Shown here piece by piece: positions 40,301-43,300 of a stretch of DNA of 64,000 nucleotides. The stretch is taken from the NCBI RefSeq assembly GCF_054482595.1, contig NZ_CM137008.1. One strand, given 5' to 3'. Position 1 is the stretch's first letter; each line of letters begins with the position of its first letter. A program made the position numbers.

Positions 40301-43300
40301 AGATCTTGTGCGGTACGCATAATGCCTTTGTCATAGGCCAGCGCTATATAGCGTTCCACCATTAGCGGCCAGGCTTCTTTATCGAGCACGCGTACATCGT
40401 TGAGTAAACCGTAGCGCATCTCGCCGCGCCAGCCGGTGCGATGAGGAATACCCGCGAAGAAAGGCACTAATGCAGATTTGAAGGAGTTGGGTAAGACGTA
40501 GGCGCGGTCGTAGCGCTTTTCACGCAGACTATGACCCAGTTTGCGGCGTTCGCCGATTTCCAGCGCTCCGTGACCGAGAGGCATAGGAATAGCTTCGTTA
40601 ACTTCCGGCATCCGCGATAATAATGGACGGCACCATGCCGGTGCCATCACATCGATTATCGCCTGGGGATAGCGCGCCTGGAGCGTGCGATAGAGACTTT
40701 GCGACATCATCATGTCGCCAACCCAAGACGGGCCGATCACCAGTATTTTCATGCAGAGCTCTTATGCGTCGCGATTCAGCCAGGCCATGTATTCCGTTAC
40801 ACCTTCAGCAACGGTTTTGAACGGTTTGTCGTAACCCGCCGCGCGCAGATTTGTCAGATCTGCCTGAGTGAACGCCTGATAGCGGCCTTTCAGTTTATCC
40901 GGGAACGGAATGTATTCGATCTGGCCTTTCTTGTGATAAGCCAGCGTAGCATCAGCTACAGCCTGGAAGGATTCCGCACGACCAGTACCGAGATTGAAGA
41001 TGCCGGAAACGCCATTTTCCAGGAACCACAGATTCACATCAGCCACGTCGCCCACATAGACGAAGTCGCGTTTGAAGTTCTCGCTACCTTCAAACAGCTT
41101 CGGTGATTCACCGTTGTTAAGCTGGGTGTTGAGATGGAAAGCGACGCTCGCCATGCTGCCTTTATGGCCTTCACGCGGTCCATAAACGTTGAAATAACGG
41201 AAGCCAACAATCTGCGAGTTCGCTTCAGGCAGGATTTGACGAACATATTCATCAAACAGGAATTTTGAGTAACCGTAGACGTTCAACGGTTTTTCGTACT
41301 CGCGGGATTCAATAAAGTCGGAGGTGCGTCCGCCGTAGGTGGCCGCGGAAGATGCATACAGGAACGGGATTTCGCGCTCCAGACAGTAGTGCAGCAGCTC
41401 TTTGGAGTATTGATAGTTGTTATCCATCATATACTTGCCATCCCACTCGGTGGTGGAAGAGCATGCGCCTTCGTGGAAAATCGCTTCGACATCGCCGAAC
41501 TCTTCGCCAGCCATAATCTGGATCAGGAAGTCTTCCTTATCCATATAGTCCGCGATATCCAGATCCACCAGGTTCACAAACTTGGTGCCGTCTTTCAGGT
41601 TGTCCACCACCAGAATATCGGTGATGCCTTTATCATTCAGGGCCTTAACGATGTTGCTGCCGATAAAGCCCGCGCCGCCGGTAACGATGATCATAACTGT
41701 AACCTTCGAATTATGGAGTCAGAGACAATCTCAGACACGAATACTTCTATCATATCACTACACGGCGTTGGCTTCAGCCATTCGCCAAAAGTGAGATTGA
41801 TGGACGTTATTTATCCTGAATTTTGCAGAAGTGTTAACGCGTCATCTCGTCGCGACCTATAAGTTTGGGTAATATGTGCTGGAATTTGCCCTGTCTGGAG
41901 AATCGCAATGCGTGGAGAATTTTATCAGCAGTTAACCAACGATCTGGAAACCGCACGGGCGGAAGGGTTGTTTAAAGAAGAGCGCATTATTACGTCTGCG
42001 CAGCAAGCAGATATCACTGTGGCTGATGGAAGCCACGTCATTAACTTTTGTGCCAATAACTATCTCGGGCTGGCGAATCATCCGGATCTGATTGCGGCGG
42101 CAAAGGCGGGAATGGATTCTCACGGTTTCGGCATGGCTTCGGTGCGTTTTATTTGCGGCACTCAGGACAGCCATAAAGAGCTTGAACAAAAACTGGCGGC
42201 ATTCCTGGGGATGGAAGATGCGATTCTCTACTCTTCCTGCTTTGATGCTAACGGTGGCCTGTTTGAAACGCTGCTGGGCGCGGAAGACGCCATTATCTCC
42301 GACGCACTGAACCACGCGTCTATTATTGATGGTGTGCGTCTGTGTAAAGCTAAACGCTATCGCTATGCCAACAACGATATGCAGGAGCTTGAAGCTCGTC
42401 TGAAAGAAGCGCGTGAAGCCGGTGCGCGTCATGTGCTGATTGCCACCGATGGTGTGTTCTCGATGGACGGCGTGATTGCCAATCTGAAGGGCGTTTGCGA
42501 TCTGGCAGATAAATACGATGCCCTGGTGATGGTAGACGACTCCCACGCGGTCGGTTTTGTCGGTGAAAATGGTCGTGGTTCCCATGAATACTGCGATGTG
42601 ATGGGCCGGGTCGATATTATCACCGGTACGCTTGGTAAAGCGCTGGGCGGGGCTTCTGGTGGTTATACTGCGGCGCGCAAAGAAGTGGTTGAGTGGCTGC
42701 GCCAGCGTTCTCGTCCGTATCTGTTCTCCAACTCGCTGGCACCGGCCATTGTTGCCGCATCCATCAAAGTACTGGAGATGGTTGAAGCGGGTAGCGAGCT
42801 GCGTGACCGTCTGTGGGCGAACGCGCGTCAGTTCCGTGAGCAAATGTCGGCGGCGGGCTTTACCCTGGCGGGAGCCGATCACGCCATTATTCCGGTCATG
42901 CTTGGTGATGCGGTAGTGGCGCAGAAATTTGCCCGTGAGCTGCAAAAAGAGGGCATTTACGTCACCGGTTTCTTCTATCCGGTCGTTCCGAAAGGTCAGG
43001 CGCGTATTCGTACCCAGATGTCTGCGGCGCATACCCCTGAGCAAATTACGCGTGCAGTAGAAGCATTCACGCGTATTGGTAAACAACTGGGCGTTATTGC
43101 CTGAGGATGTGAGATGAAAGCGTTATCCAAACTGAAAGCGGAAGAGGGCATCTGGATGACCGACGTTCCTGTACCGGAACTCGGGCATAACGATCTGCTG
43201 ATTAAAATCCGTAAAACAGCCATCTGCGGGACTGACGTTCACATCTATAACTGGGATGAGTGGTCGCAAAAAACCATCCCGGTGCCGATGGTCGTGGGCC

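Follow-up and report, generated by a model that had tools for sequence, protein, structure and literature searches.

The K-12 strain of E. coli carries the htrL (yibB) gene between hldD and kbl at the edge of the waa locus, whereas in the window analysed here (the whole stretch of 64 kb) hldD and kbl are divergent neighbours and no htrL is found between them. This raises the question of whether htrL was lost from the lineage of the window strain or was gained in the lineage of K-12. Our analysis favours a gain. With a probability of roughly 0.88, the window represents the ancestral, uninterrupted hldD/kbl divergent promoter region, and K-12 represents a derived form whose htrL cassette has been spread by homologous recombination. 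No loss is detectable at the hldD/kbl site of the window.

The hldD/kbl junction in the window and in K-12

The gene order of the window runs from waaL (37442-38695, plus strand) through waaC, waaF and hldD (38743-41694, minus strand) to kbl and tdh (43114-44139, 3' of kbl), and beyond tdh it continues with waaH and then yibQ on the minus strand. The hldD gene (rfaD/gmhD; 40762-41694, minus strand) encodes ADP-glyceromanno-heptose 6-epimerase (NCBIfam PRK11150, 677 bits) and is the first gene of the hldD-waaF-waaC operon; the hldD of the EC1515 record, which is identical to that of the window, is annotated there as rfaD. On the other side of the junction, kbl (41908-43104, plus strand) encodes glycine C-acetyltransferase (NCBIfam TIGR01822, 747 bits, and PRK05396, 648 bits). 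The minus-strand start codon of hldD has its end at 41694, and kbl begins with an ATG at 41908, which leaves an uninterrupted, htrL-less spacer of 213 bp (41695-41907) of the type regarded here as ancestral. A sequence-only reading of this DNA had reported about 213 bp between the two divergent starts and no ORF within them. Its coordinates are exact, and the only ORFs overlapping the spacer (two antisense to hldD, of 157 aa and 70 aa, and three of 20, 36 and 40 aa) are mechanical ones; a real gene between hldD and kbl is absent.

The annotated K-12 record has the order rfaD, yibB (htrL, 285 aa) and kbl, with a spacer of 1435 bp, and the K-12 arrangement that the sequence-only reading had given is therefore correct. 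The alignment of the junction to K-12, which that reading had proposed as a check, placed 61 bp of the window (41743-41803, blastn breakpoints) opposite 1283 bp of K-12. Outside this segment the two sequences were found to be nearly the same: on the hldD side, 147 of the 148 positions aligned as far as 41742 are identical, the single mismatch being located in the coding part of hldD, and on the kbl side so are 203 of the 204 positions aligned from 41804 (flank identity of 99.3-99.5%). The K-12 region (hldD-htrL(yibB)-kbl, b3619-b3617) thus shares with the window the genes on either side and the direction in which they run, as well as the hldD leader and the 104 bp beside kbl, but it has the 1283-bp htrL segment and another hldD promoter allele, both of which are absent from the window. 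This difference is not a clean deletion, because 61 bp correspond to the 1283 bp. The first ~45 bp of these 61 (from 41743) are a diverged hldD promoter allele and the last ~17 bp (41787-41803) are part of the unconserved centre of the spacer. Moreover, when K-12 HtrL was searched by tblastn against the whole 64-kb window, the best result was a 30-residue match (E = 5.5), and blastn of the K-12-specific 1283 bp against the window gave matches of 12-39 nt alone, with E values of at least 2.2. A copy of htrL lying nearby in the assembly, which the earlier reading had named as a point against itself, was thus not found within the 64-kb window by either search.

The ancestral spacer and its insertion site

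The polarity of this difference was addressed with a Kbl search covering one genome per species, which gave 80 Enterobacteriaceae loci, of which 77 include the two genes. Of these 77 species loci, 67 show hldD and kbl side by side in divergent orientation and separated by 202-229 bp, for example in E. albertii (213 bp), Salmonella arizonae (202 bp), Citrobacter (214-215 bp), Enterobacter (215 bp), Klebsiella (214 bp) and Buttiauxella (216-219 bp). A spacer of ~215 bp is the rule across the Enterobacteriaceae, and the window therefore shows the ancestral state while htrL is an insertion. Judged from this distribution, the absence of htrL is both the ancestral and the majority state, and K-12 is derived. 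Within E. coli, the spacer of EC1515 is likewise 213 bp and its sequence is 100% identical to the window over 1.2 kb; the htrL-less strains CFT073 and JJ1886 also have the 213-bp spacer. These strains and E. albertii show no substantial difference from the window. WaaL of CFT073 is just 36% identical to that of the window, which indicates that the neighbouring waaL type varies among htrL-less strains.

Against this background, a deletion of htrL in the lineage of the window strain, which would make the 213-bp spacer the scar of a K-12-like ancestor, is considered very unlikely. It could be argued for from the age of htrL within E. coli, as the gene is carried by K-12, O157:H7 and O104:H4, and from the flanks, which are ~99.4% identical to those of K-12. 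However, the spacer is colinear at every base with that of E. albertii, in which the promoter piece is 96% identical to that of the window, and its length and all of its conserved blocks are as in ~65 other species. The 61 bp have at most a weak similarity to the K-12 cassette DNA; their colinear match to the first 80 nt of the cassette was reached by 65 of 2000 shuffles. Further, a simple loss would leave the K-12 promoter allele in place, whereas the window has the other allele. In the lineage of the window strain itself the direction of change may have been a different one, as an htrL-carrying ancestor could have been reconverted to the ancestral allele by recombination.

An alignment of the spacer from 20 genera has shown conserved blocks on both sides of one unconserved middle of ~20 bp. 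This centre (41783-41803) is the sole block without conserved columns and forms the empty insertion site in the window. All exceptions to the usual spacer length were found to be insertions into this central stretch or within ~5 bp of it. The htrL cassette is present at the hldD/kbl site in K-12, Escherichia sp. MOD1-EC7003, Citrobacter sp. R56 and 'C. freundii' M-21; the central site is occupied by a waaB-like GT4 glycosyltransferase gene in the C. youngae group, and by an ERIC-like repeat of ~125 bp in Lelliottia and Enterobacter relatives. In case of Citrobacter sp. R56, the complete ancestral spacer has been kept around a 1227-bp insert. Some Cedecea and Atlantibacter-like strains also have htrL between hldD and kbl, and the representative genomes of Cedecea davisae and Atlantibacter hermannii have no htrL at this place. 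The insertion site which the cassette shares across genera is a mildly new point of this study.

The K-12 segment has a G+C content of 36%, in comparison to 51-54% for hldD, kbl and tdh. Within it, the htrL coding sequence is accompanied by a strong promoter-like site (TATACA-18-TGnTATAAT) and by a hairpin terminator. Both this promoter and a site for H-NS are recorded for the htrL/hldD spacer in Shimada et al. 2014 (PMC3946193). The low G+C content and the sharp boundaries of the cassette, the three different insertions at the same ~20-bp site and the imperfect 19-nt AT-rich direct repeats that flank the htrL coding sequence would all be in line with what is left of a mobile element, be it an island, cargo borne by an IS or an integron-like cassette, in which case the window would be the empty site. 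On the other hand, yibB is the sole gene annotated in the K-12 segment and htrL the sole ORF of the cassette; no integrase, transposase or tRNA is present in it, and examination of its ends revealed no terminal inverted repeats and no target-site duplication. In addition, the tract exchanged in Cedecea takes in the leader and promoter of hldD, a hallmark of homologous recombination within the flanking DNA. A mobile-element remnant is therefore regarded as quite improbable.

Distribution in E. coli and probable spread by recombination

The frequency of the two forms was obtained from 5426 complete E. coli genomes, 5424 of which match the junction query. The earlier reading had described the difference as a presence/absence polymorphism at the edge of the waa locus; it is genuine and is located at the kbl-side edge. 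An uninterrupted hldD/kbl junction, taken as a single aligned place with at least 80% query coverage, was found in 3465 of the 5426 genomes (64%), and the K-12 htrL segment in 1959 (36%). The two classes form a clean partition, adding up to exactly 5424, and the polymorphism is therefore two-state with no sign of a second locus of K-12-like htrL. The K-12-like htrL DNA is always chromosomal, never on a plasmid, and nearly always found at one place per genome. These population counts suggest that K-12-like htrL never sits at another locus. The htrL polymorphism is ordinary, already visible accessory-gene variation; a comparison of UTI isolates found htrL to be variable together with waaO, waaY, waaZ and waaJ (PMC8303582).

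The same counts bear on a relocation of htrL, by which the gene would be present at another locus in the genome of the window strain. A more distant, 324-aa protein of the HtrL family, labelled E. coli and 59% identical, is encoded at such another locus, and an HtrL homologue of Salmonella lies near mig-14. But no match exists in the 64-kb window, and among the 5426 genomes the K-12-like htrL occurs in exactly the 1959 that have no contiguous junction, and never on a plasmid. Relocation is thus held to be extremely unlikely.

The relation of htrL to the neighbouring core type was studied with waaL classes, of which the O157-type and the K-12-type were assigned from matches to the waaL sequences of the O157:H7 and K-12 records; the labels 'R2-like', 'R3-like' and 'R4-like' are inferred from gene content, and co-occurrence was counted with combined queries, more than 20% of whose length came from waaL and more than 20% from the cassette. 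All 1364 genomes with O157-type (R3-like) waaL have htrL, as do 451 (44%) of the 1033 with K-12-type waaL. A waaL that is neither O157-type nor K-12-type is found in ~144 htrL-positive genomes, htrL being rare in these remaining types. The window-type waaL is present in 692 genomes, the R2-like waaL in 501 and the remaining waaL types in about 1836. The possibility that the 1959 htrL-positive genomes are a plain sum of waaL-type counts was ruled out, as O157-type and K-12-type together give 2397. The waaL type of the window is probably R4-like, to judge from the GT25 gene before waaL and from the low identity to WaaL of CFT073 mentioned above. In DA33133, which is R2-like and without htrL, the 213-bp spacer was found to be mosaic, with a strongly diverged kbl-side half.

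Comparison of a 52-nt piece of the hldD promoter has shown that the K-12 (htrL+) allele is only 58% identical to that of the window, in comparison to 92% with an htrL+ Escherichia sp., 88% with an htrL+ Atlantibacter-like strain, 83% with htrL+ Citrobacter and 79% with htrL+ Cedecea. The htrL-less window allele, besides its likeness to E. albertii, is 85-87% identical to that of htrL-less Citrobacter. The promoter alleles thus sort by htrL status and not by species. This sorting, the occurrence of htrL with at least three waaL types, the presence of K-12-type waaL both with and without htrL and the mosaic spacer of DA33133 all lend support to the view, put forward in the sequence-only reading, that the locus is shaped by recombination.

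The htrL+ Cedecea genome is of particular value in this respect. Its hldD coding sequence, kbl, tdh, yibQ and envC are of Cedecea type, with 91-98% identity to the reference, as is the kbl-side spacer; for the hldD coding sequence and the kbl side the identity ranges over 90-100%. By contrast, its hldD leader, promoter and cassette belong to the Escherichia/Citrobacter type. As the cassette takes up one and the same position in Citrobacter, Cedecea and Atlantibacter-like strains, a spread by homologous recombination is indicated, and this mechanism is a reasonable one to infer from the sequence comparisons. A long-standing polymorphism shared across species would group the promoter alleles likewise, and it is the Cedecea mosaic alone which speaks for transfer in particular. 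That the cassette is transferred together with an alternative hldD promoter allele is a mildly new point as well.

According to the proposed mechanism, a self-contained, low-G+C cassette of ~1.2 kb, consisting of promoter, htrL/yibB and terminator, has entered the unconstrained spacer centre of ~20 bp. The cassette is without mobility genes and carries its own hldD promoter allele along, and in Cedecea the hldD leader too. Homologous recombination would then move it between strains, species and genera, with the conserved 5' end of hldD and the conserved ACGTGATTTAT box upstream of kbl as the probable anchors. The Cedecea mosaic is the product expected from recombination anchored at these two places. 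In E. coli the outcome would be a two-state polymorphism with partial linkage to the core type of the adjacent waa locus.

Predicted control elements of the spacer and the probable nature of htrL

At the left end of the segment that differs from K-12, identity with K-12 begins exactly at 41742, and this position holds an A that is invariant in an alignment of 52 sequences and lies 7 nt downstream of the -10 element. Transcription of hldD probably starts at ~41742, and the break therefore coincides with the predicted transcription start. The predicted 5' leader of hldD (41695-41742, minus strand, 48 nt) has no differences from K-12. The predicted extended -10 element of the hldD promoter (TGATATGAT, read as TGnTATGAT; 41749-41757, minus strand) was recognized by its conservation: TGnTATGAT is present in all 78 distinct Enterobacteriaceae sequences upstream of hldD, and its positions are invariant or nearly so in the 52-sequence alignment. 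A -35-like hexamer, CTGAAG (41772-41777, minus strand), is found 17 nt upstream of the -10 element within a GGCTGAAG block that is conserved in most genera; it may serve as the -35 element of hldD, matching the consensus at just 3 of 6 positions. A scan of the window spacer for consensus promoters and terminators found nothing, and the promoter assignments for hldD and kbl therefore rest on conservation across genera. A search by eye upstream of hldD did not find a sigma-32-type promoter. The promoters of htrM/rfaD were reportedly mapped in K-12 by Raina and Georgopoulos in 1991.

The leader also contains a conserved stem-loop of 7 pairs with a 3-nt loop (41719-41735, minus strand), which was identified by covariation. 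Compensatory changes were observed at 5 of the 7 pairs, 84.8% of the cells are paired, and the covariation score of the stem was reached by none of 500 shuffles, the slid controls being far lower. The hairpin appears in the minimum-free-energy fold. Folding of the leader by itself was no more stable than that of shuffles (z = 0.41), so the support for the hairpin comes from covariation only. An Rfam search of 41500-42100 returned no family, with one chance lncRNA match elsewhere (E = 0.49). The stem-loop appears to be previously undescribed, and it may control mRNA stability or translation.

On the kbl side, a conserved box, ACGTTATTTATCCTGAA (41804-41820, plus strand; consensus ACGTGATTTATGCTGCA), is placed at the right boundary of the K-12 insertion and might be a putative regulator site for kbl-tdh. 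Closer to kbl, conserved promoter-proximal blocks (41843-41875, plus strand) comprise CATCTCGT at 41843, which is present in 19 of 20 genera, and a -10-like TAATAT at 41870, which is present in 16 of 20 and replaced by TAAGAT in the other four. These blocks probably belong to the kbl promoter.

This study has implications for how the locus is annotated and compared. K-12 is atypical at hldD/kbl, and a missing htrL is not to be annotated as a deletion or an assembly error. The htrL status marks the waa haplotype. As a different hldD promoter allele goes with the cassette, the regulation of the heptose operon in K-12 may not transfer to most E. coli. A tentative and rather doubtful extension is that the htrL polymorphism could be an exchange of all the DNA that controls the hldD-waaFC heptose operon. 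The htrL+ allele of the hldD promoter abuts 1.2 kb of AT-rich DNA reported to bind H-NS, and htrL-less strains such as that of the window have the ancestral compact divergent promoter. Inner-core heptose synthesis could therefore be regulated differently in the two classes, for example in response to temperature or H-NS. The hairpin in the hldD leader can be put to the test as a small candidate for a regulatory element, and it is a further mildly new point.

The K-12 HtrL protein gave a full-length match to family PF09612 (436 bits) and to NCBIfam YibB PRK11346 (550 bits). NCBI labels relatives of HtrL 'WlaTC/HtrL family glycosyltransferase', and Pfam lists a family of 'unknown function'. In the AlphaFold2 model (pLDDT 89.8), the best Foldseek matches were GT-A-fold proteins, namely GT6 blood-group transferases and nucleotidyltransferases, with E ~1e-4 and a modest TM of ~0.45. 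The residues D232 and D233 are invariant, and a sequence search against PDB chains gave no match. HtrL can be described as a putative glycosyltransferase whose predicted fold is GT-A-like, and its biochemical role would presumably be in LPS.

In comparison to known systems, htrL is like the accessory glycosyltransferase genes of the LPS/LOS core (E. coli R1-R4 and K-12), which are likewise low-G+C cassettes that vary between strains and have conserved flanks. The OC loci of Acinetobacter also include an HtrL_YibB gene (PMC4172580). In contrast to the core-locus glycosyltransferase genes, htrL is placed outside the waaQ and hldD operons, beyond the hldD promoter, and is just partly linked to the core type.

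Cargo and variants of the hldD-kbl spacer

The spacer between the divergent hldD and kbl starts was found to carry cargo other than htrL in the Citrobacter youngae group (locus L007, 2696-3847; also L008 and L009). Here it holds the gene of a 383-aa GT4 glycosyltransferase, inserted about 4 bp away from the htrL insertion point, and the protein scored 383 bits against the model of the LPS 1,6-galactosyltransferase WaaB, slightly below the cut-off of 385 bits. In case of Lelliottia and Enterobacter relatives, a palindromic ERIC/IRU-like repeat of about 125 bp lies within the central stretch, the unconserved middle of the spacer (L026, about 3763-3887; also L027, L032, L037 and L045), and the spacers carrying it are 329-340 bp long.

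In K-12, where the htrL cassette forms an insert of about 1.2 kb in the spacer, imperfect AT-rich direct repeats of 19 nt, 84% identical, are present one on either side of the htrL coding sequence and its terminator (L001, 1942-1960 and 2900-2918). They could have arisen by chance in AT-rich sequence, or they could be a vestige of an earlier cassette of smaller size. Further, 'C. freundii' M-21 (L069, 2459-4000) and an Atlantibacter-like strain (L092, 5859-6525) have 0.7-1.5 kb of extra DNA between htrL and kbl, in which no convincing ORF was found, and in both of them the conserved box that precedes kbl is altered. In E. coli PKF8 (NZ_CP156813.1, about 2949410-2950170), matches were confined to the hldD side of the junction and, within the K-12-specific segment, to its first 218 bp, and kbl had no match. 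This suggests that most of htrL and kbl has been removed by rearrangement or deletion.

The hldD leader stem-loop

The 5' leader of hldD contains a small stem-loop (window 41719-41735, minus strand), which compensatory base changes have preserved across Enterobacteriaceae. Five of its seven pairs covary, a covariation score reached by none of 500 shuffles. No Rfam family was found for it, and the E. coli version is not remarkable in its stability.

The waa cluster end and core type

In the window, the last two genes of the waa cluster are a GT25 gene and then waaL (36634-38695). The encoded WaaL is only 36% identical to that of CFT073, and this waaL type is present in 692 of the 5426 complete E. 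coli genomes; as judged from gene content, the core is probably R4-like. In the clinical genomes 2012EL-2448 and N921, waaL is split by IS1 insertions, which would make these strains rough, devoid of O antigen. The gene of the UDP-glucuronate:LPS(HepIII) glycosyltransferase, waaH, lies immediately downstream of tdh and is intact in the window (344 aa); in the record of E. coli O157:H7 DEC4E (L085, 10858-11893), the annotation makes it a pseudogene with a frameshift.

Mosaic spacers and relatives of HtrL

E. coli DA33133, which has an R2-like core, also possesses a 213-bp spacer without htrL (L003, 6496-6708). In comparison to the window, its kbl-side half is strongly diverged whereas the hldD-side half is almost identical. 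For the junction, an identity of 90-95% was obtained with about 481 genomes, a number near the 501 genomes carrying the DA33133 waaL type.

A mosaic locus was also observed in the Cedecea strain GCA_018906695.1 (L090, 3784-6148), where coding flanks of Cedecea type enclose an hldD leader, promoter and htrL cassette of Escherichia/Citrobacter type, and this is evidence for transfer of the cassette between genera. Moreover, Salmonella enterica has an HtrL-family gene, 53% identical (L094, 5001-5855), which is situated near mig-14, at a locus that has no relation to hldD-kbl. Members of the family are thus found beyond the waa region as well.
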